Origin: a phage
Reading direction: 5' to 3' (one strand)
Assembly: GCA_036253055.1 (NCBI GenBank)
Contig: GCA_036253055.1_4124.1
Length of the DNA stretch: 64,000 nt
Shown: one piece after another, positions 8,553 to 60,581 of the stretch
Layout: every line of letters begins with the position of its first letter
Numbering within the stretch: the stretch's first letter is position 1
Made by a program: the position numbers and the translations under genes
The notes under the pieces: model-generated
Told to the model about the DNA's origin: nothing
What the model saw: the letters and a program-made list of their open reading frames with translations, nothing else
Databases searched by the model: none

Positions 8553-8898
8553 AATTTACCTCATATGTATTGTAACACCACGGTTTAACAATATCTATTT
8601 GTATATCATTTGCTTCATGAAAATGTTTAAGTACCTTTTGGTATTCCATTATTTCGTACACATCTTCAGTACTTATAGTGTTCTCCTGAAACAATTCCTC
8701 TTCTGATAAAGTACTATAATCAGGGATTTTTATTTCTGAATATATATCATTTATCTTTCCATTATTTTGATAAATCTGAATATAAAATTGATTGTACTCT
8801 GGAATATAGGTTACATAATGGTTGTAGTTGATTACATATCTTGAAACAAAGTATTCAGAACCATCAGTCATGTACTGAATTGTTTTCTTATTTTGCAT
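8536..8898 (-). CDS. Family-A FQ-core paralog
   Basis: Core SEEELFQENTI. Confidence 0.65.
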   Translation of the reverse strand: MQNKKTIQYMTDGSEYFVSRYVINYNHYVTYIPEYNQFYIQIYQNNGKINDIYSEIKIPDYSTLSEEELFQENTISTEDVYEIMEYQKVLKHFHEANDIQIDIVKPWCYNTYEVNYVRND

Positions 8899-9358
8899 TC
8901 AAATAATCCACGCATTTATAGTAGACTGCTAAATCTAAAAAGAATCGTTGATTGTATTTGTAATGATTAAGTAGTGCACCATAAAATAACATAGCATTAA
9001 GTACTTTTACATCATGAATACAAGAACCCTGAAAGTACATTTCCTCTGACATGAAGACTAAATCATTATACGGAACAAATACTGCTTCTCTAAATGTATC
9101 AATATTAATCTTCAAATCAGACCCAGGGCAATATGAAATGTATTCGGCTTTGTAATGAAAGTCATTATCATCAAAGTACTCCGCGTAGATTTGATTACCT
9201 CTACCATTAGTAAATGCTAGTCTTCCTTTAGATGAACTGAACTCATCGTATTGAAACATACCACCAAAAGGCTTAGGACTTCTGAACTCCTTTGCAATGC
9301 GATAGATATTTTCTGTAAATTCTAAAACACCATAGTAATCATATTCTGTAGTAATCAT
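8888..9358 (-). CDS. Family-A FQ-core paralog
   Basis: Core SEEMYFQGSCI. Confidence 0.65.
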   Translation of the reverse strand: MITTEYDYYGVLEFTENIYRIAKEFRSPKPFGGMFQYDEFSSSKGRLAFTNGRGNQIYAEYFDDNDFHYKAEYISYCPGSDLKINIDTFREAVFVPYNDLVFMSEEMYFQGSCIHDVKVLNAMLFYGALLNHYKYNQRFFLDLAVYYKCVDYLNAK

Positions 9359-45041: not shown

Positions 45042-45188
45042 CTATTTTTTAGATTTACGCAAACTTTCTACCATCTCAGGAGTAAGGCCAGGCGGGTAGG
45101 AAACCACTTCATCAACGAAACGTAAAGGGAATACCCCAGCGAAAGGTGAACGTGCTTTCTTAGTATTACTCTTTTTTGATGCTTTCAT
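45042..45188 (-). CDS. Small basic protein (48 aa); paralog of 39497-39631
   Basis: Not in track; MKASKKSNTKKARSPFAG...DEVV; SD AAGGAA. Confidence 0.45.
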   Translation of the reverse strand: MKASKKSNTKKARSPFAGVFPLRFVDEVVSYPPGLTPEMVESLRKSKK

Positions 45189-45207
45189 TTCATATTCCTT
45201 AATTAGT

Positions 45208-45267
45208 GGGGAGAATCATTTCTCCCCTTCATGTAAAACATTATACGCGTTTAAAAACTAATTGCAA
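45208..45267 (-). promoter_or_regulatory. Class-1 cassette (TTGCAA-N16-TATAAT + hairpin GGGGAGAAatgaTTCTCCCC)
   Basis: Read on minus strand. Confidence 0.6.
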
Positions 45268-45467
45268 GTACTATTTGAAAGTAAATGCTCATACGCTGCA
45301 TTAACTACGTTTTCAATAACCGACTGTACAGAAAGATCCCCCACGTCCTGGCTATAGTAGAAATCGCTTACAGTGGTGTCATCGTATGCAAATACTTTAC
45401 CAGGTACTGCATCAATCACATACATATTAACCTTTAAGATGTCGATCTTATCCTGTACAGTAAGCAT
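45258..45467 (-). CDS. Hypothetical protein (69 aa)
   Basis: SD AAAGGT. Confidence 0.5.
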   Translation of the reverse strand: MLTVQDKIDILKVNMYVIDAVPGKVFAYDDTTVSDFYYSQDVGDLSVQSVIENVVNAAYEHLLSNSTCN

Positions 45468-45472
45468 ATTAA

Positions 45473-45745
45473 TTAACCTTTTAAGTACTGGCTTAAGTAG
45501 TCTTGTTGATCTTCGGTGATTGCAGCCATCTTCCCTAGTACTGGATTGATGATATAATCCCCTGTAACGTCCTGTAACGCATTCTCAGGCGGTTTAACGG
45601 CTGGGGTAGCCATAGCCATTGCCTGGACTTGTTCGACGCTGTAACGCTCATAAAGGCGGCATTCTTCCGGTGTTAACATAGCATCAGTACGCTTCATCGG
45701 TTTAATGATGCTTTCGATCTCATTCAGTACTTGATTAACGTTCAT
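45473..45745 (-). CDS. Hypothetical protein (90 aa)
   Basis: SD GGGGA. Confidence 0.55.
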   Translation of the reverse strand: MNVNQVLNEIESIIKPMKRTDAMLTPEECRLYERYSVEQVQAMAMATPAVKPPENALQDVTGDYIINPVLGKMAAITEDQQDYLSQYLKG

Positions 45746-45796
45746 GGTATAATCCCCAATATAAGCGGCCTAAATCGACCGCTAACGATGTTTTGA

Positions 45797-46066
45797 TTAA
45801 TAGGTGTATGGTTGACGCTCAAACAATGAATAGACGTTATACGCCCCGCTTATGGGCTTCGCTGGTAAATCAATTTTATATTGTTCACGCTTAAAGATAA
45901 TAAAACGGCAATTGTTTTTAACATCAAAATTGATTGAACGTTCCAGGAGTTTACCATCGTGCACAAATACAAGATAACCGCTTGGTACTTGTTTTGTAGA
46001 ACTGGTTGCAACCATAGACCGACGAACATGTGTACCTGCATCGATTAAAGTACTGATATTTTTCAT
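45797..46066 (-). CDS. Hypothetical protein (89 aa)
   Basis: SD AAGAGGAT; 7-bp inverted repeat ATGCAGA-N15-TCTGCAT upstream. Confidence 0.55.
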   Translation of the reverse strand: MKNISTLIDAGTHVRRSMVATSSTKQVPSGYLVFVHDGKLLERSINFDVKNNCRFIIFKREQYKIDLPAKPISGAYNVYSLFERQPYTY

Positions 46067-46146
46067 TTTACTATCCTCTTAAGTTGATTTAATTTCTTTC
46101 TCCTATGCAGACACTATATCAAAGTATCTGCATAAAGTAAAGCTAA

Positions 46147-46470
46147 TTAAAGATCTTTTTTGCGTTTAACATTCTGTACAGTACAATGCAACGGGATATT
46201 AAGATCATTGCACAAACGATAGAGGGAGGTTTCAACAGTATCAAGCCCGTCTACTGATTCCTTTAAGAGTGATACCGCCGTTTGTTGATATGCATCCTCA
46301 TAGCCATAAGTAAATGATTCAACCGCCAGATCATTCAAGCCGTTATCCAGTTCAACGCTTACATGACAAGAATGATAAGTATTGCCATATGAATCAGTCC
46401 AACGTTTACCGTCAACATTGATTGCATGGATTGCAGCCAGGGAAACGGTGTTGATGATAGTTTTAGCCAT
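46147..46470 (-). CDS. Hypothetical protein (107 aa); paralog of 39086-39409
   Basis: SD AAGGAA; class-2 promoter upstream. Confidence 0.6.
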   Translation of the reverse strand: MAKTIINTVSLAAIHAINVDGKRWTDSYGNTYHSCHVSVELDNGLNDLAVESFTYGYEDAYQQTAVSLLKESVDGLDTVETSLYRLCNDLNIPLHCTVQNVKRKKDL

Positions 46471-46561
46471 TTTAGTATTCCTTAAATTAATATGTGTCGT
46501 CTTGATAAAATCTATTATGCCAGTACTATCAAACTATGTCAATAGTACTGTGATAATATTT

Positions 46562-46774
46562 TTACTTACTTTCTTTCGCTGCTTTATATGTTGCCACTGC
46601 CATAACCACATCAGCACGAACAAAGTTTTTAACCGTGTCACTGTAATAATTGATCGCATCATCTATATCTGCGAACGTCCGATACATACCGCACCAAGAT
46701 ACTTTATAACCTTCTTTCACTTCTACCAGTTTAACGATAGTCTTGTTAACTTTGATTTTAGTAATGATAGCCAT
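46562..46774 (-). CDS. MAII-family small protein (70 aa)
   Basis: Start moved to ATG 46774 (MAIITKIK, SD TGAGGAAAC); track start MVLP is the cassette hairpin. Confidence 0.55.
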   Translation of the reverse strand: MAIITKIKVNKTIVKLVEVKEGYKVSWCGMYRTFADIDDAINYYSDTVKNFVRADVVMAVATYKAAKESK

Positions 46775-46794
46775 TTTAGTTTCCTCATTATCAG

Positions 46795-46852
46795 GGAGAA
46801 CCATTTCTCCCCTTGATGTAATGTATTATACTTTATTCGATTTACTTTGCAA
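46795..46852 (-). promoter_or_regulatory. Class-1 cassette (TTGCAA-N16-TATAAT + hairpin)
   Basis: Read on minus strand. Confidence 0.6.
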
Positions 46853-46861
46853 GTACTTTTT

Positions 46862-47089
46862 TTAATTTAATTCATCCAGGCAAAGGATACGCTCAACGCC
46901 CAAATCAGTTAAACTAATCGACGGCACTTGATAGGTTTCAATGTATGCTACACTTGCCCACTGACCGAACTCATTAACGGCCCAGGTATTCATTGCATTT
47001 TGCAATTCCGCACCTGCCTTGTTAGTAATGACTGCAACTACTTGTTCGTTGCCAGTAGTACCAGATACGCGAGTAATGATAATAGCCAT
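46862..47089 (-). CDS. MAII-family small protein (75 aa)
   Basis: Start moved to ATG 47089 (MAIIITRV, SD AAAGGAA). Confidence 0.55.
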   Translation of the reverse strand: MAIIITRVSGTTGNEQVVAVITNKAGAELQNAMNTWAVNEFGQWASVAYIETYQVPSISLTDLGVERILCLDELN

Positions 47090-47112
47090 TGTTTTGATTC
47101 CTTTGATTTGGA

Positions 47113-47172
47113 AGGAGAACCGTTTCCCCCTCTCGATGTAAAACATTATACGCTAATCTCTTAATCGTGCAA
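47113..47172 (-). promoter_or_regulatory. Class-1 cassette (TTGCAC-N16-TATAAT + hairpin)
   Basis: Read on minus strand. Confidence 0.55.
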
Positions 47173-47216
47173 GTACTTTTTATTACTTTTTGCAAAATAC
47201 TTTAAACGCTCTCAAT

Positions 47217-47307
47217 CGCATTCTAACGACCTTAACGCCACCAGCTAGGGCGATGTATCAGATAATCAGTTTAATGCGTTAGAATCGATTCTAGGCGGTG
47301 CTGGTGG
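47217..47307. repeat. Interleaved inverted repeats (CGCATTCTAACG / CGTTAGAATCG and CCACCAGC / GCTGGTGG)
   Basis: Two inverted-repeat pairs arranged A-B...A'-B' between a terminator and the next promoter. Confidence 0.5.
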
Positions 47308-47324
47308 ACTGGAATACTACAGAC

Positions 47325-47352
47325 ACAAAAAAGCCCACTGTTTAAGGTGGGC
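47325..47352 (-). terminator. Intrinsic terminator (GCCCACcttaaacaGTGGGC + T6)
   Basis: Hairpin then TTTTTT on minus strand, 20 nt after stop at 47375. Confidence 0.7.
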
Positions 47353-47374
47353 TAGTGATTCAGTACTTTAATTG

Positions 47375-47857
47375 TTATGCTTCAACTTTGCGATGAGCTT
47401 CGATCCATTCCTCGCGAGTCATACCGCTTTCTTTGATAGCGTCCAGTACTACCGCAATGCAGTTACCGCGTACAGGAATCAAATGTTCTTCCCCGTTATC
47501 AAGGACAACAGTAACACGTTCTTGAATCCATTTTTTAGGCTTAGATTCCGGCTTATCTTCACCGTACTTAACCGCCAGGGCTTTATGTGCCATTTCAATA
47601 ACCACTTCCAGATCTAAACCAGACACCGCCGCCTGAATACTTTCTATTGTTGCTTGCAGTTCTGCTTCACGGGCTTTTTTCTGTTCTTCCAGTTCTGCTA
47701 CCTTTTTGGCTTGTAGTTCTTTCGCTTCACTGTAAGCAATGTTAAAATTGTTGCGTACTGCTTTCATGGTATCATTATCCAGGTCAGCCAGCAATTCAGC
47801 AGCAATCACAGTATCGTTAGAAATCAGTGCTTTCAGAAATGATTTTACATTAGCCAT
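47375..47857 (-). CDS. Hypothetical coiled-coil protein (160 aa)
   Basis: Start moved to ATG 47857 (MANVKSF, SD GAGGAT); Lys/Glu-rich heptad-like segment; strong terminator downstream. Confidence 0.6.
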   Translation of the reverse strand: MANVKSFLKALISNDTVIAAELLADLDNDTMKAVRNNFNIAYSEAKELQAKKVAELEEQKKAREAELQATIESIQAAVSGLDLEVVIEMAHKALAVKYGEDKPESKPKKWIQERVTVVLDNGEEHLIPVRGNCIAVVLDAIKESGMTREEWIEAHRKVEA

Positions 47858-48049
47858 TTTATAAATCCTCAATTAAAGTTTAAGTTAGTTTATCAAAGTT
47901 TGTTTGACGTGTCCAGTTTTTCATTCGACTTACTGGCGGTCTACTTAATGTTCCCCGTCTTGATGTAATACATTCTACGCTTTTCCCTGGTAATGTCAAC
48001 TACTTTTTTAAAACTATTTTCAAAGTATACCAGTACTACGATACTACAA

Positions 48050-48078
48050 AAACAAAAAAGCCCACTGTATAAGTGGGC
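48050..48078 (-). terminator. Intrinsic terminator (GCCCACttatacaGTGGGC + T6)
   Basis: Near-duplicate of terminator at 47325; follows stop at 48097. Confidence 0.7.
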
Positions 48079-48096
48079 TAGTGATTCAGTACTATA

Positions 48097-48396
48097 TTAT
48101 AAACAATTAATTACGCCAGTGAATGTAACTTTCTCTGTATCCATTACAGTAACCGAACCGCGTTTACTTTTTGCATCGTAATAGATGGTCGTGCTACCCT
48201 GATCATCTTCTTCATGGTACGGGCCATTAGCAAACATTGCAGGGGCCAGTTCCAGGGATTTGGTAACGATCTCAGCCGTTTCCTCGTTAGTCATTGCAAC
48301 AGTGCACTGAATGAATTTTTCTTTCTGTACATCAACGGAAGCGTTAACAGCGAAAGAGGAAACAGATAAAGCCAGGGCGATGATTGCAGTTTTCAT
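48097..48396 (-). CDS. Putative secreted/periplasmic small protein (99 aa)
   Basis: N-terminal signal-peptide-like MKTAIIALALSVSSFAVNA; SD AAAGGAT; own promoter and terminator. Confidence 0.6.
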   Translation of the reverse strand: MKTAIIALALSVSSFAVNASVDVQKEKFIQCTVAMTNEETAEIVTKSLELAPAMFANGPYHEEDDQGSTTIYYDAKSKRGSVTVMDTEKVTFTGVINCL

Positions 48397-48418
48397 TTGT
48401 ATATCCTTTGTTAGTACT

Positions 48419-48474
48419 AGGGAGTATTCCCGATTAGATGTAAAACATTATACGCGTTTAAAAACTATTATCAA
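48419..48474 (-). promoter_or_regulatory. Class-1 cassette (TTGATA-N16-TATAAT + GTTTTACAT)
   Basis: Read on minus strand; weak hairpin. Confidence 0.5.
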
Positions 48475-48507
48475 GTACTTTAATATAAAAGTATTTGAAA
48501 AAAAGTC

Positions 48508-48640
48508 TTGACAACTGCATCCAGTACTGGCATAATATCTACATAAAGACGAGATAGTCACTAACCCACAGGGTGCATAGATCCGTCTATTAAATGATTC
48601 AGTACTGCAAAATAAAGGGGATCGTTTGATCCCCCTGATT
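48508..48640 (+). ncRNA. Candidate plus-strand small RNA (class-2 promoter + CACTAACCCACAGGGTGCA element + terminator hairpin)
   Basis: TTGACA 48508-13, CATAAT 48531-36, element 48559-77, hairpin GGGGATCgtttGATCCCC 48617-34; no ORF; opposite to all local genes. Confidence 0.35.
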
Positions 48641-48641
48641 A

Positions 48642-48863
48642 TTACTTAGTAAGATATAAACAAAAATCACCTTTCTTTGATACTCCGCAAGTGTAACGCG
48701 ATGAATAGTTAGAAACGTCTTGTACTTCTGCAATGACGAGCGTATCATCATTTAACTCATCGCAAAAACATACTGCGGGATCTTCTACGCCGATATTGTC
48801 GGCATGTTCCCGCATAGATTTAACCAGTGCTTCAAGCTGGGAAAGAGTAGTGATATTAGCCAT
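48642..48863 (-). CDS. Hypothetical protein (73 aa)
   Basis: SD AAGGAG; cassette upstream. Confidence 0.6.
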   Translation of the reverse strand: MANITTLSQLEALVKSMREHADNIGVEDPAVCFCDELNDDTLVIAEVQDVSNYSSRYTCGVSKKGDFCLYLTK

Positions 48864-48882
48864 TGTAAAACTCCTTATTAGT

Positions 48883-48941
48883 GGGGAGAACCATTTCCCC
48901 CTTGATGTAAACTATTATATAGTACTGGAAACTATTTGCAA
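48883..48941 (-). promoter_or_regulatory. Class-1 cassette (TTGCAA-N16-TATAAT + hairpin)
   Basis: Read on minus strand. Confidence 0.6.
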
Positions 48942-48947
48942 GTACTT

Positions 48948-49136
48948 TTAATTAAATTCCATAAAATCATTTTCAACGTGCACAACAATCTGATTATTTT
49001 TAAAGGACGCAGAAAACTCTATACAATCATAAACCGCTTTTTCTGTTACCAGACTATGAGCACCAATCGGATTAATTGGGGATTGAATTGTTTCAATCTC
49101 GTTACCCTGCTCATTTACAATTAAAATATTAAACAT
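48948..49136 (-). CDS. Hypothetical protein (62 aa)
   Basis: SD AGGAG; promoter TTGCAA-N16-TATAAT. Confidence 0.55.
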   Translation of the reverse strand: MFNILIVNEQGNEIETIQSPINPIGAHSLVTEKAVYDCIEFSASFKNNQIVVHVENDFMEFN

Positions 49137-49210
49137 TGTCGTTACTCCTGGATAGTGTTAACTCGATGTAAACAATTATACAGTACTGGAAACTAATTGC
49201 AAGTACTTTT

Positions 49211-49414
49211 TTAATTTAATTGCTTTAAAACAAAATCAAAGACACCACGCACATCATTGATCATCGCCTGGCGGTTAGCAGGTAACGCATCAGGATCGCC
49301 ACTATCCCAGGCATTAATGAAGCCACTTAAATCATGGAATACTTTATTCCGTAACCCGATCAACTGCAATTCTTTTTCTTCAAGCTCTTTGATACGTTCA
49401 ATTAAATCACTCAT
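49211..49414 (-). CDS. Hypothetical protein (67 aa)
   Basis: Start moved to ATG 49414 (MSDLIERIK, SD GAGGAT). Confidence 0.5.
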   Translation of the reverse strand: MSDLIERIKELEEKELQLIGLRNKVFHDLSGFINAWDSGDPDALPANRQAMINDVRGVFDFVLKQLN

Positions 49415-49431
49415 TAGATAATCCTCAGTAC

Positions 49432-49716
49432 TCAATTGTAAGATCCACATCGTTCGCAGTAGTGTTCATCTTCCTCATCTTCTACCACTTGCCCGATGAA
49501 ATGATCTACTTTCGCTTTCAGGTTATTATAATCGTTTTCTACTTCCTGTAAACGTTCCTGGTAGTATTCCAGGGCTTCAACAAATGCAGCTTCCTCTGAT
49601 TTTGCTTGCATCGATAAATTCATCCCGCGTGTTTCATCATATAGCCAAAAACCATCGGTGCATTCAGTTATAGATAACGTGTTAGTCAGTACTTTACTAT
49701 TAATTACTTTGCTCAT
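49432..49716 (-). CDS. Hypothetical protein (94 aa), Cys-containing C-terminus
   Basis: SD GAGGAT; C-terminal HYCERCGSYN. Confidence 0.55.
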   Translation of the reverse strand: MSKVINSKVLTNTLSITECTDGFWLYDETRGMNLSMQAKSEEAAFVEALEYYQERLQEVENDYNNLKAKVDHFIGQVVEDEEDEHYCERCGSYN

Positions 49717-49735
49717 TAGATAATCCTCATTAAAG

Positions 49736-49794
49736 GCGGGAACTATTCCCGCTCTCGATATAAAGTATTATACGTTAATCTAATTACTTTGCAA
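49736..49794 (-). promoter_or_regulatory. Class-1 cassette (TTGCAA-N16-TATAAT + hairpin GCGGGAAtagTTCCCGC)
   Basis: Read on minus strand. Confidence 0.6.
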
Positions 49795-49801
49795 GTACTT
49801 T

Positions 49802-50039
49802 TTAGTGCTTTTTATAAAACATCTCAGCGGTGATATTTTTACCCGTTGGTTGTACTTTATCCAGGATCTTTTGGTGTGCACTACGCCCGAAAGAATAAGA
49901 ACCGTAAACCGTTAGCCAGTAGTCGCCATTTTGGTTTACATGTACCGCACAATAAGGAACGCCCCGCGAATCGTCACCAATGAAGTGTGATACTGTACCC
50001 GTTACGTTTGGCGTTGTAGTTTTGATTTGTTCGATCATT
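49802..50039 (-). CDS. Hypothetical protein (78 aa)
   Basis: Start moved to ATG 50039 (MIEQIK, SD AGGAG) downstream of hairpin GGCGGGGAAtggTTCCCGCC. Confidence 0.5.
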
Positions 50040-50096
50040 TCTCTTACTCCTGGGATATAGGCGGGAACCATTCCCCGCCATTGATTCAGTACTGAA

Positions 50097-50708
50097 TTAA
50101 TATTCGATAGATTCTACTACATCGTCGATAACGTTAAATTGATATTCGTTACCCTCAATCAGTCCTACAATGTTTTCAGTAGTAAACTGGTCTTCATAAG
50201 CATTTTCTAAATCACGGTACAGCTTACAAGATAATTCTCGGATAGTATCAGTCAGTAAGTTTTCCAGATCCTCAGCCAATGCAGCCTGTTTTACAGTTAA
50301 ATCAGTGTAGCGAGTATCAACGCAACCGCCTACCGTGTTTTCGTGAGCGTAGCGTGATTGGGAACGTTCTACACTCATTTCCAAATCATCTTCGTTCAAC
50401 AGGTGACGGATGGAACGATATTTCGTTAACGCCTTAACCTTGCGTAAAAACTTCTCAGCGTCAACGTGGTCAGTACTGATTGATGCACCGTCACCTTGCG
50501 ACCAAAAACCACTGTATTGCAATTCAGCTTCATCTATGCCGTATTCTGGCAGTACTGTTTCTTTATAGTATTCCAGTACTGATTCAGCAAAGAAATTATC
50601 CTCACTTGCACGTTCCCGATCCCGAACCAGTTCGATAGCCGCCGCTTGTTGTTCTGCGTTCAGTTCAGAAAAATCCATAACGAAAGTAGTAGTAGTGATA
50701 GTTTTCAT
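50097..50708 (-). CDS. Hypothetical acidic protein (203 aa)
   Basis: SD TGAGGGT; tandem promoters with structured element X copy 2 between them. Confidence 0.65.
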   Translation of the reverse strand: MKTITTTTFVMDFSELNAEQQAAAIELVRDRERASEDNFFAESVLEYYKETVLPEYGIDEAELQYSGFWSQGDGASISTDHVDAEKFLRKVKALTKYRSIRHLLNEDDLEMSVERSQSRYAHENTVGGCVDTRYTDLTVKQAALAEDLENLLTDTIRELSCKLYRDLENAYEDQFTTENIVGLIEGNEYQFNVIDDVVESIEY

Positions 50709-50778
50709 TTTGTAACCCTCATTCAGTAGTTGATGTAAGTATTATACGCTTTTAAAAACAATTGTCAAACTATTTTAT

Positions 50779-50886
50779 CAGGGGAGTTTTTCGTGTGCCT
50801 TACTCCTGGGCTACTTAACGGGAAGTTACTTATTTCGTTCCCCGTCCTGATGTAAAACATTATACGCCTTTAAACATAGTTTGCAA
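50779..50886 (-). ncRNA. Candidate structured leader/sRNA element X (copy 2)
   Basis: About 90% identical to 39968-40074; frame-disrupting differences argue against a peptide. Confidence 0.35.
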
Positions 50887-50931
50887 GTACTTTTTGAAAA
50901 TAGTTTTTATCTCTTTCATATAGATACATTC

Positions 50932-51001
50932 CCGCACCCTATGGGCTATCGCCTTGTGTCCGGCTTGTAAGTATTATCTCACTAAGCCGGATAACGGTCA
51001 A
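50932..51001 (-). promoter_or_regulatory. Class-2-like promoter (TTGACC..TAATAC) + conserved CCCATAGGGTGCGGG element + hairpin CCGGCTT-N17-AAGCCGG
   Basis: Same promoter-to-element arrangement as 42498-42567. Confidence 0.4.
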
Positions 51002-51007
51002 GTACTT

Positions 51008-51274
51008 TTATTCAAGTACTGCAATCTTTTTAGTACTGTACACAGTAACGCGGTTGCCCTTGCGGTCGTGCTTTATTTCTACCACGCGACGCGATACACT
51101 ATCAGGACGCTTTAAAGCAGATAGCCAGTACTGAATTGATCGGGCTGTACTTTGCTTTACTACGGCCCAACGTTTACCACGTTCAGATTGTACGCCCATA
51201 TCTTTAAACGTTGCCCCGTCCTGGCGTGCTGCAATCCGAGCTAGTTCACGCGTCGCAAAATATGTAATAGTCAT
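51008..51274 (-). CDS. Hypothetical protein (88 aa); paralog of 38591-38986
   Basis: Start moved to ATG 51274 (MTITYFATREL, SD AGGGGT). Confidence 0.55.
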   Translation of the reverse strand: MTITYFATRELARIAARQDGATFKDMGVQSERGKRWAVVKQSTARSIQYWLSALKRPDSVSRRVVEIKHDRKGNRVTVYSTKKIAVLE

Positions 51275-51357
51275 GCTGTTACCCCTATCGTTGATGTACA
51301 AAAAGAACTTTATTATAAAGTACTATCACCGTGCAATAGTACTTTTAATCTATTCTC

Positions 51358-51597
51358 TTACATTCCAACCATCGCCGCACGGATCGCAGTAGTACTATAC
51401 TTAAAGCCGTCCGGTGTTTTATCTTGTCCAGTCTGTTCTAAAAATAGCATCATATGACGGGCCGCATCATTACGATTAGTGTTAGCGGCAATAAAGTCCT
51501 GGGCCAACCGGTATAATGATTCGTCGTTATTAATCCAAAGGCTTACATTCCATTGAGTTTTGTTTTTGTGTCCTAAGAACATTTTTGATTTAGCCAT
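51358..51597 (-). CDS. Hypothetical protein (79 aa)
   Basis: Start moved to ATG 51597 (MAKSKMF, SD AAGAGGAT). Confidence 0.55.
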   Translation of the reverse strand: MAKSKMFLGHKNKTQWNVSLWINNDESLYRLAQDFIAANTNRNDAARHMMLFLEQTGQDKTPDGFKYSTTAIRAAMVGM

Positions 51598-51618
51598 TTT
51601 TAAATCCTCTTTATTATA

Positions 51619-51677
51619 GTGGGGAACTATTCCCCACCTGATGTAAAACATTATACGCTTTTAAACTTAGTTTGCAA
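51619..51677 (-). promoter_or_regulatory. Class-1 cassette (TTGCAA-N16-TATAAT + hairpin GTGGGGAAtagTTCCCCAC)
   Basis: Read on minus strand. Confidence 0.65.
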
Positions 51678-51691
51678 GTACTTTATTAAAC

Positions 51692-52054
51692 TTATTCGTA
51701 AATCTTGCCACTGTCAGCCCATACCAGGAAACGAGGCATATTATCCCATGCATCTTGTTTTAAGTTTAAGCCGTGTAATACTTCTGTACTTTCCATTCCT
51801 GGTACTGGCTTGCTATACACTGCAAACATTTCGCCCATGTACTGATAAGCCATCGTTAAATCAGTCTGGATCATCTTATGGATCATTGCATCCAGCATTG
51901 CAGTAGCGGCATACTGTTCACGCTTAAGCGGCAGCATTGCAATCAATTCCCGATAAGCTGCAATGTGAATCCGTACAGTCTCAGCGGGAAGATCTTTCAT
52001 CTCTTCACGGAAAGAAACCAGGTTAAGCATGATAGTATTGATTTGAGTCGCCAT
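51692..52054 (-). CDS. Hypothetical protein (120 aa)
   Basis: Start moved to ATG 52054 (MATQINT); first gene of the middle module. Confidence 0.55.
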   Translation of the reverse strand: MATQINTIMLNLVSFREEMKDLPAETVRIHIAAYRELIAMLPLKREQYAATAMLDAMIHKMIQTDLTMAYQYMGEMFAVYSKPVPGMESTEVLHGLNLKQDAWDNMPRFLVWADSGKIYE

Positions 52055-52077
52055 CGTTTTAATCTCTTTTAAAGTGT

Positions 52078-52137
52078 AGCGGGAAGTGTTCCCGCTCTCG
52101 ATGTAAAACATTCTACACCTTTCCCAATACTTTGCAA
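52078..52137 (-). promoter_or_regulatory. Class-1 cassette (TTGCAA-N16-TAGAAT + hairpin AGCGGGAAcacTTCCCGCT)
   Basis: Read on minus strand; most upstream cassette of the module. Confidence 0.6.
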
Positions 52138-52879
52138 GTACTTTCTACAAATACTTTTAAAATAGTTTTCTTTCTATATAGGGGAACTATCTTTCAGTAC
52201 TGCAACCATCCAGGGGAACTATCTTTCTATATAGTAGTACTATGATTCAGTACTGAATCAATCCACCAAATCATCCCGATACCCCGTAAAACGGCCTCAG
52301 ACGCATTCTAACGCATTAATACACCTAAGCTATACATTTGCACCATTCCAATCATTCCAGGGCTTTACAGGCCGTTTAAACGCGTTAAATTATTTTCAAT
52401 TATTTTGTTTTTAGCTATTGACTCAGTACTAAAAAAGCGTATAATTACTACATAGACGCGAGAAAGCGGATACCCCAGGGGGTGGGAAGATCCGTCCAAA
52501 ATTCAAGATATAAAAAAAGGATACACTCCCGCACCCTAGCAGGTTAACGCACTTTCTCAGTACTGAATTATAGTACCATAGTCCGGCCCAGGATGGCAAG
52601 CAAATTAATTAAAACTTTTTTCATCCAGGGTATTGCTTTATTTTTCCAGTACTGTATAATAGTTCCATCAAGTCGAGAAAGACTCAAGCCCACCGGGTGC
52701 ATAGTTACGCCCAAAATTCAGTACTGAAAAAATTTTTAAAAATATCCGTCCAGGCCGTTGACATTGCCCCCAGTTTATAAGATAATGATTCCAGATTCAG
52801 AAAAATCTAACTCCAGATACTGCGGGGAAACTATCCCCACGCGGTAGGGGAACTATTGGAAAAAACAAAATAAAATTTT

Positions 52880-53040
52880 GATTTAGCCGTCTATACTTCC
52901 AGACGTGTAACCATCTAGCCGTTTAGCCGTCCAAACGTCTAGCAATCCAGCCATCCAGAAATCTAGCCGTTTAGCCGTCTAGATGGATAGCCATCTTTAC
53001 TTCCAGACTTCTGGAGGGCTAGACATATCTACGTCCAAAA
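52880..53040. repeat. GC-richer block of short direct repeats (TAGCCGTTTAGCCGTC x2, CCATCCAG, TCCAGAC) with small hairpins
   Basis: Visible direct repeats; AGATGGatagCCATCT and CCAGActTCTGG palindromes. Confidence 0.5.
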
Positions 53041-53193
53041 TCCACCCAGGGTAACTACGCCCAAAATCCGTCAGTACTATACCATAGATCTATCTTTTGA
53101 AAGGGAGTATTCAGTACTGTCATCATAGCCCTCACTATGTTACCCTAGGAGGATGAAGACTATCATGTAGTACTGAATACTGTTAGAGGGAAT

Positions 53194-53213
53194 CCACCAG
53201 CACAAGCTGGTGG
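53194..53213. repeat. Perfect palindrome CCACCAGCacaaGCTGGTGG
   Basis: 8-bp arms; same CCACCAGC motif recurs at 47.24 kb, 35.30 kb and 40.12 kb. Confidence 0.6.
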
Positions 53214-53700
53214 CATAATGCTTTAGATTAAAATCAGTACTGACACCATTCTGTTAATATCAGTACTGTTATTACGATTTTCATATGAGGTTCAAAAAGA
53301 TGTACCACCACAGGAGGAACTATCTTTTCTGTACTGTCTCACGACAGGAGGTAGAGTAAATGAATTGTTCGCAGCAACTCATCACCCTATGTAGAACATT
53401 ATACAGTACTGAATCATAATGTCAATAGCTTTCTTTCATTATTCAGTACTGAAATCGTATAATCTGTATCGCTACAAAACTCATTATATCCCACAAATCC
53501 TATATGTCCCAACGTAAATTTCAACTTTCGAAGATCCAACTTTTATTTCATAGGTACTCCAAAATTTTTAGGATCGAGATTTAGGATGGAGTACTAACCA
53601 ACTTTTTGCTGGAGCCTCAAGGGGTAATTGAATTTTACCCCGAAGGGTAAAAGGGTAATTGAAATTAAGGTGAAAGTAATAATTCAGTACTAATCATTGC

Positions 53701-53729
53701 GTGATTACTTTTGATTACATTTGATGTAA
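53701..53729. repeat. Iteron cluster 1: TGATTAC-like repeats at exact 10-bp spacing (x3)
   Basis: TGATTACTTT TGATTACATT TGATGTAATT. Confidence 0.55.
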
Positions 53730-53867
53730 TTTGCAAAATGGAAAAGGAGCTTGGAAACTACAAAGTACGGCAGACTTCCTCTGCCTACTTAGTGGCATAT
53801 CAGTACTGCTACGTTCTTGATTAAACGTGAACATTCCTGTACTCTAGTACTCACTACTGATCACTAC

Positions 53868-53929
53868 AGTGATTATAAATGATTACTTAAATGTTTATAT
53901 ATGATTACTTATGACTACCTATGATTACG
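53868..53929. repeat. Iteron cluster 2: ATGATTAC(TT) repeats (x5, 10/22-bp spacing)
   Basis: gtgATTATaaATGATTACTT...ATGATTACTTATGACTACCTATGATTACgg. Confidence 0.55.
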
Positions 53930-53978
53930 GGGTTTAGCCTGGGGAGAATCCTAGTGATCGCATTTGTCCAGGCTGAAT

Positions 53979-54001
53979 TTTAACATATGCAACATATGTT
54001 A
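53979..54001. repeat. Perfect 10-bp-arm palindrome TTAACATATGcaaCATATGTTAA
   Basis: Directly downstream of the last family-C gene; possible operator or terminator. Confidence 0.55.
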
Positions 54002-54044
54002 AAGCCTGTATAATGCTTCCACTACGGAGCTTCCCCTAGCTATA

Positions 54045-54236
54045 TTACTTCCTATATATAATCATTAAGATATAGTAGTACTGATTATACTGTACATTCT
54101 CTTTAATATTATAAGGGTCTATAGCAATCTCGGTACATCTGTTAAATGCATATCTATTAAATGCCAGTGGAATTATAGATCTAATCCATACTTGTTCATT
54201 TTCTTTTAGTTTACTTATATAGAAGTTTTTATACAT
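54045..54236 (-). CDS. Family-C paralog (~60 aa)
   Basis: MYKNFYISKL...YYYILMIIYRK. Confidence 0.55.
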   Translation of the reverse strand: MYKNFYISKLKENEQVWIRSIIPLAFNRYAFNRCTEIAIDPYNIKENVQYNQYYYILMIIYRK

Positions 54237-54251
54237 AGTATTCTCTATTAA

Positions 54252-54434
54252 TTAATATGATAGTACTAGTGTTAGTACTGAGCACAATTGTTCTTTGTAG
54301 TTCTTAGGGTATATAGAATCTTTTATGCACTCATTGAAGTGCCATAGGTATAATCTTGGGTCGCATTCTTTATATATTCTTACGGGGACGAATGTTAGTT
54401 TTCTTATATAGAATTCTTTATGTTCTTTATTCAT
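54252..54434 (-). CDS. Family-C paralog
   Basis: MNKEHKEFYIRKL...LTLVLSY. Confidence 0.55.
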   Translation of the reverse strand: MNKEHKEFYIRKLTFVPVRIYKECDPRLYLWHFNECIKDSIYPKNYKEQLCSVLTLVLSY

Positions 54435-54439
54435 ATTAG

Positions 54440-54625
54440 TTAGTGTCTGTATATAAGTAATAGTAAGAATACGTACTGCACATCTTCATCTTTAGTATTG
54501 AGTACTGTACGTATTGCGTCATTAAACAAGAATATAGTACTTGGGTCATGAGAATTTAAAGGGGTTCTGGGTACGGCATGTTTGTAGTTCCCTTTAACAA
54601 ATTGTGTGTAGTATTCTCTATGCAT
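54440..54625 (-). CDS. Family-C paralog
   Basis: MHREYYTQF...FLLLLIYRH. Confidence 0.6.
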   Translation of the reverse strand: MHREYYTQFVKGNYKHAVPRTPLNSHDPSTIFLFNDAIRTVLNTKDEDVQYVFLLLLIYRH

Positions 54626-54626
54626 A

Positions 54627-54812
54627 TTAGTACCTATATATTAGGGCGAGAATGTAGTACAATTCATATGGAATGTAATTTGGGGTGATCGCACACTGTG
54701 TATGGTAAATGAATTGTTCGGTATTTTTCTTATCCTTGATATCTATTGGGATTAGTGGTATAAGCATTTGGGAGTTTAGATCCAGATGGCTTAAGTAGAA
54801 TTCTTTATGCAT
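54627..54812 (-). CDS. Family-C paralog
   Basis: MHKEFYLSHL...YILALIYRY. Confidence 0.6.
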   Translation of the reverse strand: MHKEFYLSHLDLNSQMLIPLIPIDIKDKKNTEQFIYHTQCAITPNYIPYELYYILALIYRY

Positions 54813-54821
54813 ATTGTTCTC

Positions 54822-55010
54822 TTAGAATACGAAAGCTAGGTACAGGGTATGATACAGTACTCGATGGTAGCTGTCAAAATCTAGTATACATGCTTTAGTG
54901 CACATAGTAAAATACACTTTATCATTTTGTGCATTGATACCGCGAGGTTTATCTAATAGATTAGTTCTGAGGTACATTGGGAAATATTTTGTGTAGTATT
55001 CTTTATGCAT
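54822..55010 (-). CDS. Family-C paralog
   Basis: Start moved to internal ATG (MHKEYYTKYF); ...YHTLYLAFVF. Confidence 0.5.
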   Translation of the reverse strand: MHKEYYTKYFPMYLRTNLLDKPRGINAQNDKVYFTMCTKACILDFDSYHRVLYHTLYLAFVF

Positions 55011-55011
55011 G

Positions 55012-55194
55012 TTAGTACCTGAATATAAGTAGGATAGTGTTATATAGCTGGTCATAACTACTACTATTTTCTATACTTCGTTCTATGCAGTTATTGAATC
55101 CCAGTACTGCCAAATCGTTATCCAGAGGGACTTTATATCTGGCGTAGTGTTCAAAAATGCTGGGGAGAAATTGTGTGTAGTATTCTTTGTGCAT
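55012..55194 (-). CDS. Family-C paralog
   Basis: MHKEYYTQFLP...NTILLIFRY. Confidence 0.6.
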   Translation of the reverse strand: MHKEYYTQFLPSIFEHYARYKVPLDNDLAVLGFNNCIERSIENSSSYDQLYNTILLIFRY

Positions 55195-55195
55195 A

Positions 55196-55381
55196 TTAGT
55201 ACCTATATATTAGTAAAAGGATGTGATACAGTACTCGATTATAGTCTTCAATATATATCGAGGATTTAGTGCACTGAATGAAGTAGTCTTTTTCGTAGTT
55301 TTTTTCTATACCCAATGGTTCTGTTGGTACAAGGTGTTGGAGATACATTGGGAGTTTCTCTATGTAGTATTCTTTATGCAT
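55196..55381 (-). CDS. Family-C paralog
   Basis: MHKEYYIEKLPMYL...HILLLIYRY. Confidence 0.6.
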   Translation of the reverse strand: MHKEYYIEKLPMYLQHLVPTEPLGIEKNYEKDYFIQCTKSSIYIEDYNRVLYHILLLIYRY

Positions 55382-55382
55382 G

Positions 55383-55571
55383 TTAGTACTTAAATGTTAG
55401 GGCGAGGATGTAATACAGTTTATATGTTCTATCCTCATACATTAGGGTGTACTTAGTACATTCCTGGAACATTGTTTTTGCGTCATCTTTTATGCCCAAT
55501 GCAACGTTTGGTATATGGCTCTGTAGATACATTGGGAGTTTCTCTATGTAGTATTCTTTGTGGTTATTCAT
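55383..55571 (-). CDS. Family-C paralog
   Basis: MNNHKEYYIEKLPMYL...YILALTFKY. Confidence 0.6.
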   Translation of the reverse strand: MNNHKEYYIEKLPMYLQSHIPNVALGIKDDAKTMFQECTKYTLMYEDRTYKLYYILALTFKY

Positions 55572-55572
55572 A

Positions 55573-55755
55573 TTAGTACCTGAATGTTAGCATTACTACG
55601 TAGTACAGCATATATGGATTATCATCGTATATGAGCGTGTACTTAGTACATTGTTGGAACATTATCTTTGCGTGATCTTTTATTCCTATTGGTTCTGTTG
55701 GTATATGGTGCTGGAGATGCATAGGGATTTTATCCCTGTAGTATTCTTTGTGCAT
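55573..55755 (-). CDS. Family-C paralog
   Basis: MHKEYYRDKIPMHL...YVVMLTFRY. Confidence 0.6.
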   Translation of the reverse strand: MHKEYYRDKIPMHLQHHIPTEPIGIKDHAKIMFQQCTKYTLIYDDNPYMLYYVVMLTFRY

Positions 55756-55765
55756 GTTGTTCTCT

Positions 55766-55945
55766 TTAGTACTTATATATTAGGAGTAAAATGTTATAGT
55801 ACTGGTTCATTGCGTCATCATTTTCTATAGCACGTTTTACGCTATTCATGTAGTTAGATCGAGCGGCACGAGTTATGAGAAGAACTTTGTATGCAGCAAA
55901 GTATTTTTGCTGCACGGGTAGTTTAGAGATATAGTATTCTTTATA
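55766..55945 (-). CDS. Family-C paralog
   Basis: Start moved to internal ATG (MYKEYYISKLP); ...YNILLLIYKY. Confidence 0.5.
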   Translation of the reverse strand, partial: YKEYYISKLPVQQKYFAAYKVLLITRAARSNYMNSVKRAIENDDAMNQYYNILLLIYKY

Positions 55946-56612
55946 CATAGTTTGTAATATACGTAATGAGGTGATGCATTTTCTTATTAGTACTGATAAT
56001 TTCCTGTACATGTTTTGTCAGATTGTACGCGTTTTTATAGAGTACTGGATTATCGATTACAGTACTGTACATGAATAGTTCTTCTTCCTGTAGTTCTTTG
56101 TGTTCTAGTTCTTTGAGGAAATCTACAATTGATTTAGTTTCTTCTGTACGTTGTGCTTGCCAGAAGTGCATATTCTCGTGTACTTTTTTTGAACCCATAT
56201 TGTATATGCCACCCATTTGGAATTGTGCTGTATTGACATCGTGGGAGGTGTTACAATTCCCGAAGAAGTATGTATTCCCGAAGTATAGCATTAAAGTGCA
56301 CGGGGTATTATCCAACTGCATATGGATGATGAAGGATGCGTTCTTTAGTACCTTTGTGCTCGTATTAGTACTCAATACTTTTAAATCAGTATTATAGATA
56401 TTCATATAATGAACAGCTATATTATTTTTTTTCATATACAAATCAAGGTTCTTTGATACGTTAACACCATTTGTACTGGATTTTTCCTTTTTATTTCGTT
56501 TCTTTAGTACATTCGGGTGATACGTATATGCAGATGTAACTGATTCTGCCTGAATACTATTGAGGTACTTAAAGTGCTTAAGGTATTGTTTGCTGTGTGC
56601 ATTAAGTTTCAT
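55941..56612 (-). CDS. Larger protein (223 aa) embedded in the family-C array, with family-A-like C-terminal core
   Basis: C-terminal EEELFMYSTVIDNPVLY resembles the family-A core (FM for FQ); SD AAAGGAAACC. Confidence 0.6.
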   Translation of the reverse strand: MKLNAHSKQYLKHFKYLNSIQAESVTSAYTYHPNVLKKRNKKEKSSTNGVNVSKNLDLYMKKNNIAVHYMNIYNTDLKVLSTNTSTKVLKNASFIIHMQLDNTPCTLMLYFGNTYFFGNCNTSHDVNTAQFQMGGIYNMGSKKVHENMHFWQAQRTEETKSIVDFLKELEHKELQEEELFMYSTVIDNPVLYKNAYNLTKHVQEIISTNKKMHHLITYITNYV

Positions 56613-59393: not shown

Positions 59394-59401
59394 GAGGGAA
59401 T

Positions 59402-60511: not shown

Positions 60512-60517
60512 CATAAT

Positions 60518-60546
60518 GCCAGTACACTGTACTGGCTTTCTTATTT
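60518..60546 (+). terminator. Intrinsic terminator (GCCAGTACactGTACTGGC + TTTCTTATTT)
   Basis: Perfect 8-bp stem and T-rich tail after stop of paralog 2. Confidence 0.7.
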
Positions 60547-60581
60547 GTATTAAATATAGTATAACAAATAAAGGAGGGAAT

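Follow-up and report, generated by a model that had tools for sequence, protein, structure and literature searches.

A widespread acidic protein family behind a conserved two-promoter cassette in an Asteriusvirus jumbo coliphage

We find that a minus-strand open reading frame at 50097..50708 of a 64,000-nucleotide stretch of phage DNA (the window, meaning the whole stretch analysed) encodes a stand-alone copy of a very widespread acidic domain, PHROG 5162, and that its gene lies behind two promoters flanking a highly constrained leader, element X. The best explanation for the 203-aa product, which we put forward tentatively, is an establishment-phase factor, expressed early from σ70 promoters, that interferes with the host or counters its defences. 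The window is part of the genome of an Asteriusvirus, a jumbo coliphage of Escherichia coli. The coding sequence runs from an ATG at 50708 through its stop codon, with a Shine-Dalgarno (SD) sequence, GAGGG, read from the sequence 7 nt 5' of the ATG (50716..50720, minus strand); its ortholog in Escherichia phage 121Q, gp271, shares 97.5% amino-acid identity. It is a genuine, strongly conserved gene: comparison with six orthologs gives dN/dS of 0.09-0.16, indicating purifying selection, at dS of up to 0.89, and the family alignment backs M1 as the start. An initial annotation of this DNA had proposed the ORF, the two promoters and element X, and all four are recovered where it placed them, far above chance. 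All 20 neighbouring window genes tested either belong to PHROGs with no assigned function or are RCC1-like.

Assignment to phrog_5162 is unambiguous (E=7e-80, residues 4-198 aligned to positions 3-198 of a 201-position profile), and a family HMM built in this analysis scores the protein at 235 bits. Profile searching places 10,093 representatives of 50%-identity clusters in the family, 2,285 of them at E≤1e-30, together with 6,854 clusters at 90% identity, and its members range over jumbo phages, rV5-like phages and alphaproteobacterial conjugative elements. Three hallmark motifs are present in the 203-aa protein, SGFWSQGDGA at 66-75, YxHENT at 120-125 and, at 164-168, the Y..L(E) part of a helix motif, LYxxLE, and the invariant family columns are Q71, G72, D73, G74, A75, H122, Y164 and L167. 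Databases offered no function. No member of the family has an experimental or curated function, the names in use being 'hypothetical' or an unsupported 'antitoxin'; searches of NCBIfam and PADLOC with the family were empty, the PDB held no match by sequence or by profile, and nothing of relevance came to light in the literature on the family and its motif, on its 'YeeU-like antitoxin' label or on Asteriusvirus promoters. The Pfam library, which includes models for Ocr, ArdA and ArdB (Antirestrict) as well as LPD and MPTase families from work on polyvalent proteins, was searched with the protein and with 60 relatives, none of which matched at E ≤ 1, and it had no match for the plasmid versions either.

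The product had initially been described as rich in Asp and Glu and likened to DNA-mimic antirestriction proteins. The compositional part of that description holds well: the pI is 4.32 and the net charge −24, with 43 acidic residues (D+E, 21.2%) and 19 basic ones (K+R, 9.4%). Ranked among the 123 minus-strand window ORFs of at least 70 aa, a pI this low is found in about 7% and a D+E content this high in about 3%, so the protein is markedly acidic without being extreme. Acidity is kept across the family, where 302 relatives have a median pI of 4.5 and a median net charge of −20.5, and 93% lie below pI 5. Charge is conserved family-wide at positions that include 42/46/50, 168/170/172, 177/178/182 and 188, whose i/i+4 spacing falls on predicted helices. 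Conservation extends to basic residues as well, with K89, R98 and R115 forming a conserved basic stretch; in the 203-aa protein itself residues 81-100 carry a charge of +4.

One reading, that of the initial annotation, is a DNA mimic like Ocr or ArdA, whose surface carboxylates would imitate phosphates and so titrate type I R-M, BREX or other DNA-binding enzymes. Besides the family-wide acidity and the charge-conserved helical positions, this reading draws on the ArdC and SSB genes that adjoin relatives in conjugative elements. Ocr (T7 gp0.3) and ArdA, like the 203-aa protein, are small, acidic and stand-alone; their genes are among the first that a mobile element switches on, as is proposed for the 203-aa protein, whose relatives adjoin anti-restriction functions (ArdC and an annotated methyltransferase/helicase). 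We nevertheless judge it distinctly unlikely. There is no sequence, profile or fold relation to either protein: the Pfam search was empty, alignment of profiles by hhalign gave T7 Ocr a probability of only 0.4%, and Foldseek found no neighbour in the PDB, with no solved DNA mimic among the matches listed, so that the structural resemblance to DNA mimics that the initial annotation had looked to was not found, as far as computation reaches. The charge per residue, −0.12 with 19 K+R and the +4 patch, is half that of T7 Ocr (−0.24; −28 over 117 aa with 6 K+R), and the strongest conservation falls on non-acidic residues, a G/F/S/Q/D/G/A hairpin plus Tyr, His and Tyr, which is atypical of pure mimics and is shared with neither Ocr nor ArdA. 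DNA mimics have unrelated, heterogeneous folds. A missing structural neighbour is therefore not fatal to the idea and only makes mimicry less probable.

An AF2 model of the protein (pLDDT 92, pTM 0.83) has the element order β1-α1-α2-β2-β3-α3-α4-β4-β5-α5-α6-β6-β7, with SGFWSQGDGA forming the β2/β3 hairpin, YxHENT in the β4/β5 loop and LYxxLExEY on the long helix α5. Judged from its sequence conservation, the hairpin/Tyr/His cluster resembles a dedicated pocket or interface more than an all-purpose imitation of phosphate. Searched with Foldseek against 350,542 PDB chains, the model has no neighbour (best E=1.1, TM≤0.21), and the GAF- and LuxR-like rows are meaningless because their TM scores fall below 0.22 at E above 1; significant neighbours in BFVD are all uncharacterised proteins, headed by phage homologs of the protein itself. 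The cluster can also be read as that of an enzyme or of a protein that binds a small molecule, for example a hydrolase or a 'sponge' for a host immune-signal nucleotide, in which the SQGDG hairpin, the YxH loop and the helix Tyr would form an active site or pocket and acidity would be secondary. Its appeal lies in a polar and aromatic constellation that stays invariant across more than 10,000 diverged clusters, in the compact α/β domain of a high-confidence model, in the occurrence of the domain within a multi-effector polyvalent protein, a class rich in catalytic domains (PMC5512222), and in an Acb2/Tad1-hairpin gene found in the same small-gene array as the family gene at one phage locus. 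We consider it unlikely, though not negligibly so: the domain resembles no known catalytic or ligand-binding family by sequence or fold, and it has no recognisable metal-binding or nucleophile motif.

Among the 80 best bacterial loci, a gene for a Strawberry-notch helicase (1,444 aa) lies 3' of the family gene on the same strand in 65, at a median gap of 143 bp, and within 6 kb Toprim_3 occurs in 26, ParB_N in 26 and ArdC (called as ArdcN plus MPTase-PolyVal) in 10, the ArdC/Strawberry-notch association being that of one alphaproteobacterial subfamily favoured by the scan pattern and the ranking. PGAP labels the plasmid Strawberry-notch homolog a bifunctional methyltransferase/helicase. Conjugative plasmids of Rhodobacterales add SSB, H-NS, DUF932, RadC and DUF6878 to this block, and at least 38 of the bacterial loci have a 139-aa partner gene overlapping the family gene upstream. 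In the single fusion examined, the polyvalent protein P0180 (1,479 aa), a Doc/Fic domain at 17-134 is joined to the family domain at 779-960. In phages, no neighbour is conserved across 79 viral loci, the most frequent reaching 15 of 79 in contigs that appear to be interrelated, and DUF932 lies 0.5-1.8 kb from the family gene in 15 phage contigs, mostly of jumbo size (about 350-380 kb).

The bacterial linkage might mean that the protein works with the machinery that processes DNA at entry (the Strawberry-notch helicase, a primase or ParB), as an accessory subunit or a regulator, and is no inhibitor of defence, the phage copy then acting on a phage or host counterpart. Same-strand linkage to the helicase, the nearby Toprim and ParB genes and the overlapping upstream partner all fit such a role. 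The phage loci do not: copies there stand alone amid unrelated small genes, and the window contains neither the 139-aa partner nor DUF932 and has no Strawberry-notch-like gene among the annotated neighbours. We regard this role as improbable.

Polyvalent proteins and the genes beside them (ArdC, the methylase-helicase dyad, Toprim primases) serve phages and conjugative elements as modules for conflict and establishment (Iyer et al. 2017, PMC5512222). Anti-defence genes are over-represented in the leading regions of plasmids, as are orphan methyltransferases, SSBs and families that lack a characterised member (Samuel and Burstein 2024, PMC11541004). The PHROG 5162 domain was not found named in either paper. 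It shares with the modules they describe the ArdC, ParB, Strawberry-notch, Toprim and SSB neighbourhood, a distribution over both phages and conjugative elements, and one fusion to a Doc/Fic polyvalent protein; it differs in the window phage, where the family gene is free-standing, the linkage being seen for relatives and not at this locus. Guilt by association of this kind supports an establishment or counter-defence role. The antirestriction idea of the initial annotation gains indirect support in its general form, counter-defence, from the relatives' ArdC/SSB/ParB/helicase blocks and the Doc/Fic fusion, and not as DNA mimicry as such.

Under the counter-defence reading that we tentatively prefer, the protein would bind a host target in a stoichiometric manner, the target probably being a basic or nucleic-acid-binding protein. 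Its conserved acidic helical faces may supply electrostatic attraction and the invariant hairpin/His/Tyr cluster specificity, and mobile elements would carry the domain among the genes needed just after entry into a new cell. Several observations sit less easily with this proposal: the ArdC and Strawberry-notch linkage belongs to one subfamily, phage loci share no conserved neighbour, and the neighbours tested in the window have no assigned function or are RCC1-like. The polar invariants S66, S70, Q71, D73, Y120, H122 and Y164 would equally fit an enzyme or a small-molecule pocket, and the charge density is moderate and accompanied by the conserved basic stretch.

Some relatives carry record names such as 'antitoxin of toxin-antitoxin stability system', 'YeeU-like antitoxin' and 'Antitoxin of the YeeV-YeeU system', which would make the protein a YeeU/CbeA-like type IV antitoxin neutralising a phage or host toxin. 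The position of the family gene in DUF932-RadC islands is comparable, resembling the E. coli CP4-44 order RadC-DUF987-CbeA-CbtA. Against the label, no NCBIfam model stands behind the name; the family profile aligned by hhalign to E. coli CbeA gave a probability of 0.13%; the Pfam model CbeA_antitoxin (PF06154), which as a positive control finds CbeA at 6e-52, finds no family member, not even the plasmid relatives that bear the 'antitoxin' label; and no toxin-like (CbtA-like) partner is conserved across the 79 viral loci or present in the window. CbeA/YeeU is moreover a 122-aa protein with a toxin partner, whereas members of this family have about 200 aa and none. On the hhalign and Pfam results we reject membership among YeeU-like antitoxins, and an antitoxin function of this type is very improbable. 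By sequence, then, the 203-aa protein falls outside the Ocr, ArdA, ArdB and YeeU families.

The gene's upstream region, which the initial annotation had called unusually elaborate, bears that description out, with two promoters flanking the conserved element X on the minus strand. The distal 'class-1' promoter, AAAAAGTACTTGCAA-N16-TATAAT (50859..50895; -35 at 50886-50881, -10 at 50864-50859), matches 10 of 12 consensus positions as TTGCAA-16-TATAAT (50886..50859). It belongs to a promoter+hairpin+SD cassette repeated 10-15 times in the 44-56 kb region; the window has 11 exact GTACTTGCAA-N16-TATAAT sites, each of them on the minus strand, against an expectation of none. The proximal promoter, TTGACA-16-TATAAT (50741..50768), is a perfect σ70 consensus (12/12) followed by a conserved initial transcribed sequence, ACTTACATCAA. 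Its hexamers are invariant in relatives and its spacer is variable, and seven Asteriusvirus genomes agree at every one of the 40 nt that separate its -10 from the ATG; the window contains exactly two copies of the extended motif TTGACA-N16-TATAATACTTACATCAA, one at this promoter and one at 39919-39957, again with none expected. Host σ70 RNA polymerase most likely transcribes the gene early in infection, a timing that we infer only from the σ70-like promoters. In the arrangement we propose, a cassette of about 190 nt would comprise the distal promoter, X beginning at about its transcription start, the proximal promoter and a 34-nt leader bearing GAGGG. From the two promoters, two mRNA species are to be expected, one with X at its 5' end and one without.

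Element X, the 89-nt leader between the promoters (50766..50854, minus strand; covariance-model score 117 bits), is under very strong constraint by the measure of sequence comparison. Only 9 of its 89 columns vary over seven orthologous loci, next to a coding sequence whose synonymous divergence reaches 0.89, and it is matched at 103 places in 45 phage records, always with at least 88.8% identity. Rfam 15 contains no match (best E=6-7, far below gathering scores), and 5,426 E. coli genomes contain neither X nor the whole cassette. A candidate fold has a closing stem (50851-50846/50782-50777), a hairpin (50845-50818) and a small pseudoknot around an SD-like CCAGGAGUAAG (50809-50799). All predicted pairs are kept with almost no variation; one pair, 50808/50796 in the window (the C of GTAGCCC and the G of AAGGCA), shows a compensatory change, reading C-G in 5 distinct sequences and U-A in 7. 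Because the helices hardly vary, covariation neither proves nor disproves them, and folding of the single sequence shows no unusual stability (z=-1.35).

Several other accounts of X were rejected. It lacks the U-tract of a terminator. A 31-aa ORF spanning it, which starts inside the -10 TATAATG and has no SD, is not coding, since indels of 1, 2, 3 and 4 nt (in E9.1, EJP2/UE-S1, muut, outra and CMSTMSU) break its frame. Pairing of a GTAGYCC motif in X with the downstream SD as an anti-SD fits both window copies, including a C-G to U-A change, and misfits in muut and EJP2. Most likely, X acts in cis as an RNA element that either stabilises the 5' end or targets polymerase or ribosome. The put RNA of phage HK022 is a cis-acting, polymerase-binding antiterminator RNA, and there, as in the proposal for X, a structured RNA of about 75 nt lies just 3' of an early promoter, under strong constraint, in phages of one host. 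X differs in having no Rfam or sequence match and in the absence of any sign of terminators that would need override.

The cassette is not tied to this gene. A second complete copy (class-1 promoter, X and consensus promoter) lies at 39900..40090 on the minus strand, with X at 40043..39955 (120 bits), and drives an unrelated 66-aa gene at 39699-39899 (PHROG 7744). Across phages under three taxa different genes stand behind the promoter-X-promoter cassette, and its conservation far exceeds that of the adjacent CDS: phages that share only 80% identity in the CDS (dS≈0.85) share about 99% in the cassette. Homology between the window and 121Q stops at 50907. T4-type phages reportedly carry promoter-early stem-loop (PeSL) cassettes, which Arbiol, Comeau and Krisch are said to have described in 2010. 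Those cassettes likewise are short repeated promoter-plus-hairpin modules before many small early genes, with boundaries at mosaic breakpoints, as the end of homology at 50907 and the 99% against 80% identities suggest here. The cassettes of the window phage differ in that the hairpin follows the promoter, and the X version adds a second promoter and the ultra-conserved 89-nt leader.

Should the counter-defence reading prove correct, it would open a family of more than 10,000 clusters that has no Pfam model, solved structure or PDB neighbour, and the coupling of its relatives to ArdC and Strawberry-notch offers a testable hypothesis of plasmid and phage establishment. The cassette, for its part, is a candidate new regulatory RNA or DNA element and may also be a recombination module by which early genes pass from one phage lineage to another. 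The most far-reaching combination, to which we give little credence, would have the protein represent a counter-defence family of new fold, among the largest without a Pfam model, used at entry by phages and conjugative elements, and X be a new pseudoknotted leader that works in cis as RNA, by engaging RNA polymerase, the ribosome or an RNase of the host, and is exchanged among coliphages under three taxa within a portable two-promoter cassette. If neither the protein nor the cassette reading holds, what is left is a hypothetical early gene of the ordinary kind under a strong promoter.

At its 3' end the gene runs into a compact junction (50043..50095, minus strand). A palindrome, TCAGTACTGA (50086-50095), comes right after the stop codon, followed by a hairpin, GGCGGGGAA-TGG-TTCCCGCC, at 50079-50060 and by a 12-mer, CCCAGGAGTAAG, at 50054-50043, which serves here as the SD region and is an exact copy of a 12-mer in X (50799-50810). 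No promoter-like site lies between 50097 and 50038, which makes co-transcription with the next gene likely. That small gene (49802..50038, minus strand), probably part of the same transcription unit, is a homolog of 121Q gp272 (PHROG 9227), annotated in 121Q as a 237-nt gene; the PHROG 9227 match begins at residue 12 of the longer downstream ORF.

The window phage is an Asteriusvirus (Rak2/121Q-like) jumbo coliphage, with 96.9% identity to Escherichia phage 121Q over 1.3 kb around the gene for a 203-aa protein (50708→50097, minus strand), whose counterpart is 121Q gene 271, annotated 'hypothetical protein'. This is a real and conserved gene, with an acidic product and a nearby promoter: a GAGGG Shine–Dalgarno (SD) sequence lies 7 nt ahead of its ATG, and the coding sequence is under purifying selection (dN/dS 0.09–0.16 against six orthologs, with dS up to 0.89). 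Calculation bears out the marked acidity noted in the initial annotation (pI 4.32, D+E 21.2%, net charge −24); among minus-strand ORFs in the window, ~7% are equally acidic by pI and ~3% by D+E content. Acidity is also a trait of the family (median pI 4.5, median net charge −20.5, pI <5 in 93%), with charge kept at positions including 42/46/50, 168/170/172, 177/178/182 and 188.

No match to the protein was found in Pfam, NCBIfam or PADLOC; PHROG 5162, a family of unknown function, matches it over its full length (E=7e-80). At 90% clustering, a single-sequence search returned 186 homologs and a profile search 6,854, while an exhaustive HMMER scan gave 10,093 representatives of 50%-identity clusters, 2,285 of them with E≤1e-30. 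Phage carriers comprise Asteriusvirus, rV5-like Vequintavirinae, Klebsiella K64-1/RaK2-like phages, jumbo phages of Erwinia, Yersinia and Pectobacterium, ~100 kb Acinetobacter phages and Caulobacter CcrPW. The 'Campylobacter phage' records MG065647, MG065659, MG065661, MG065672 and MG065690 hold rV5-like homologs with 58% identity to the query, the same level as those of E. coli Vequintavirinae, and are probably mislabelled or contaminated.

The acidic product had been likened to DNA-mimic antirestriction proteins. Using the Pfam library, which we take to include models for Ocr, ArdA and ArdB, we found no match to these in the 203-aa protein or 60 relatives; hhalign against T7 Ocr gave 0.4%, and Ocr differs from the 203-aa protein in net charge per residue (−0.24 vs −0.12) and in basic residues (6 vs 19). 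The mimic mechanism, although possible, is unsupported, and antirestriction activity as such is plausible by association. In some records relatives go by the name 'YeeU-like antitoxin', in others by 'antitoxin of toxin-antitoxin stability system'. We rejected YeeU/CbeA identity and treat the label as a propagated, unsupported annotation, because the family profile scored 0.13% against E. coli CbeA in hhalign, Pfam CbeA_antitoxin matched no family member (CbeA itself scoring 6e-52), and no NCBIfam model stands behind the name.

Gene context in other genomes is the main functional clue. Of 471 relatives detected in 185,579 species genomes, the best 80 loci, mostly from Alphaproteobacteria, were examined. 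In 65 of these 80 the next gene on the same strand encodes a 1,444-aa Strawberry-notch helicase (median gap 143 bp); 26/80 have Toprim_3/DUF7146, 26/80 a 725-aa ParB_N protein and 10/80 ArdC (ArdcN + MPTase-PolyVal). A block on Rhodobacterales conjugative plasmids unites H-NS, SSB, DUF932, RadC, DUF6878, a 139-aa overlapping partner and the family gene with a methyltransferase/Strawberry-notch helicase, Toprim and DUF2493. The partner, a conserved ~139-aa acidic gene (MADYFTHFSCLLDVGT...WGFQYA.TCSRPRL) without a Pfam or NCBIfam match, runs into the beginning of the family gene in alphaproteobacterial conjugative elements, at 8589–9008 of locus L002 and in 38 of loci L021–L100. Another relative (P0180), of 1,479 aa, has the family domain in its interior (residues 779–960) and a Doc/Fic domain at its N terminus. 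These neighbours match the polyvalent-protein and conflict-system parts of phages and conjugative elements described by Iyer et al. (PMC5512222), and SSB, an orphan methyltransferase and uncharacterised genes are the usual mix in plasmid leading regions rich in anti-defence genes (PMC11541004). The relatives are embedded in establishment and anti-restriction neighbourhoods. Among 79 viral loci there is no fixed partner gene: DUF932 is the commonest neighbour (15 loci), on contigs that are mostly jumbo-sized (about 350–380 kb), and family genes otherwise have small unknown genes around them, in one case with an Acb2/Tad1-hairpin gene nearby. The window has neither DUF932 nor the alphaproteobacterial 139-aa partner. 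From these comparisons we infer that the 203-aa protein may work early in counter-defence or host interference, by binding a target.

The family has invariant columns at Q71, G72, D73, G74, A75, H122, Y164 and L167 and near-invariant ones at S66, G67, F68, S70 and Y120, to which an alignment of 190 non-redundant sequences adds conserved E15-L16, G57, T125, Y171, N187, F191 and G196. An AF2 model built from a 60-sequence alignment is confident (pLDDT 92, pTM 0.83), with the order β1-α1-α2-β2-β3-α3-α4-β4-β5-α5(36 aa)-α6-β6-β7; in it the SGFWSQGDGA motif corresponds to the β2-β3 hairpin and YxHENT to the β4-β5 loop, and α5 bears Y164/L167. Structural resemblance to known proteins did not emerge: Foldseek gave no neighbour in the PDB (E 1.1 at best, TM≤0.21), and significant BFVD matches were uncharacterised proteins only, phage homologs of the 203-aa protein on top. 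The family is huge and uncharacterised, and its modelled fold is confident and novel-looking. Because the invariant cluster is polar and aromatic, an enzymatic or ligand-binding role is a serious rival to target binding in counter-defence or host interference. In broad kind, we place the gene, as an uncharacterised new type, with the proteins that serve mobile elements in early establishment or counter-defence.

Upstream control is as elaborate as first described. On the minus strand, a distal class-1 promoter (AAAAAGTACTTGCAA-N16-TATAAT, 50895..50859) is followed by element X (50854..50766), a perfect TTGACA-16-TATAAT proximal promoter (50768..50741) and a 34-nt leader to the coding sequence. 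In seven Asteriusvirus genomes, pairwise identity is 96% over the 195 nt that precede the ATG, against 80–88% in the coding sequence and 59% in the 100 nt downstream; variable columns number 21/195 upstream vs 142/612 in the coding sequence (Fisher p=9e-5). Upstream variation is concentrated in promoter spacers, which points to functional constraint. The window's 195 nt are closest (98.5–99%) to those of E9.1, SD-6_S16 and Ecwhy_1, the phages with the most distant coding sequences (only 80%), whereas its coding sequence is closest to that of 121Q (96.9%), where the cassette is only 93.8% identical. Because cassette and coding sequence have different nearest relatives, and homology to 121Q stops at 50907, the cassette (50709–50907, compared with loci L010–L015) is a mosaic boundary, which implies recombination where it joins the coding sequence. 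The gene preceding the cassette is a PHROG 8127 member (51008–51301, minus strand), where 121Q has another gene; its paralog at 38591–38995, also minus, shares FATRE.ARI.AR..G.TFKDMG...GKRWAV...IRHDRKGNRVTVYS.

Element X is real and strongly constrained, occurring at 103 places in 45 phage records with identity always at least 88.8%. Asteriusvirus genomes have 2–4 copies each, and single copies occur in Justusliebigvirus (muut, outra) and in phages of 137–145 kb classified under Vequintavirinae (A73, W70, A7_1); E. coli genomes lack X, and no Rfam family matched it. A second full cassette in the window (40090..39900, minus strand), with diverged promoter spacers and X ~93% identical to the copy at 50766–50854, precedes an unrelated 66-aa gene (39699–39899, minus; PHROG 7744). 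A degenerate X-like leader (47962..47895, minus; covariance model 23.8 bits, E≈0.001) has an upstream TTGACA-16-TAGAAT promoter and no second one. Genes after X differ among the copies checked (two in the window, muut, EJP2, A73 and outra), with apparently the same gene in muut and EJP2. Some annotations put a 31-aa ORF on X, but indels disrupt it in several copies.

Our best guess is that X acts as a 5′ RNA element. Its predicted RNA has a closing stem from approximately the distal transcription start, a hairpin with an indel-tolerant loop and a GGAG/CUCC helix; all of these pairs are preserved across 12 distinct sequences, with hardly any variation. Perfect covariation at one pair (C-G in 5 sequences, U-A in 7) defines a 3-bp stem; since this stem encloses GGAG in its loop, an H-type pseudoknot is suggested. 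The covariation score, from this single pair in two haplotypes, was reached by 2/500 shuffles. The interest of the locus lies in the family's size and obscurity and in the promoter–X–promoter cassette, which is unusually conserved and portable.

The window has 11 exact class-1 motifs where 0 are expected, all of them minus-strand. Within 44–56 kb (44000–56000, minus) a cassette of 50–110 nt recurs 10–15 times, preceding small genes in succession (for example at 49753–49804, 51636–51687 and 52096–52147): AAAAAGTACTTGCAA-N16-TATAAT, then GTTTTACATCGAG, a 5′ hairpin of the GGGGAGAA-NNN-TTCTCCCC type, and an SD. It is reminiscent of the mobile promoter/stem-loop cassettes known from T4-type phages. 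Against an expectation of 0.11, the window has 13 copies of the palindrome TCAGTACTGA (for example at 50086–50095, 50470–50479, 52247–52256 and 53443–53452), of which one comes directly after the 203-aa gene's stop codon and another lies within that gene; the upstream block of the class-1 promoter also contains AGTACT. The 25–57 kb region is a leftward array of small genes, and a PHROGs scan of 20 neighbours gave unknown function for all except four tandem RCC1-like paralogs (PHROG 4219; 58191–62941, plus strand) at the right end of the window. In the left third (1–24500) the minus strand is filled with ORFs of like size, ~140–220 aa. Repeat units every ~190 nt at 54600–55760 (63–86% identity) probably represent small paralogous genes in tandem, leaders included. 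The intergenic stretch 52884–52983 holds ~12 tandem copies of the 8-nt unit TAGCCGTC (62% matches), alternatively read as 3 × 24 nt, and looks iteron-like.
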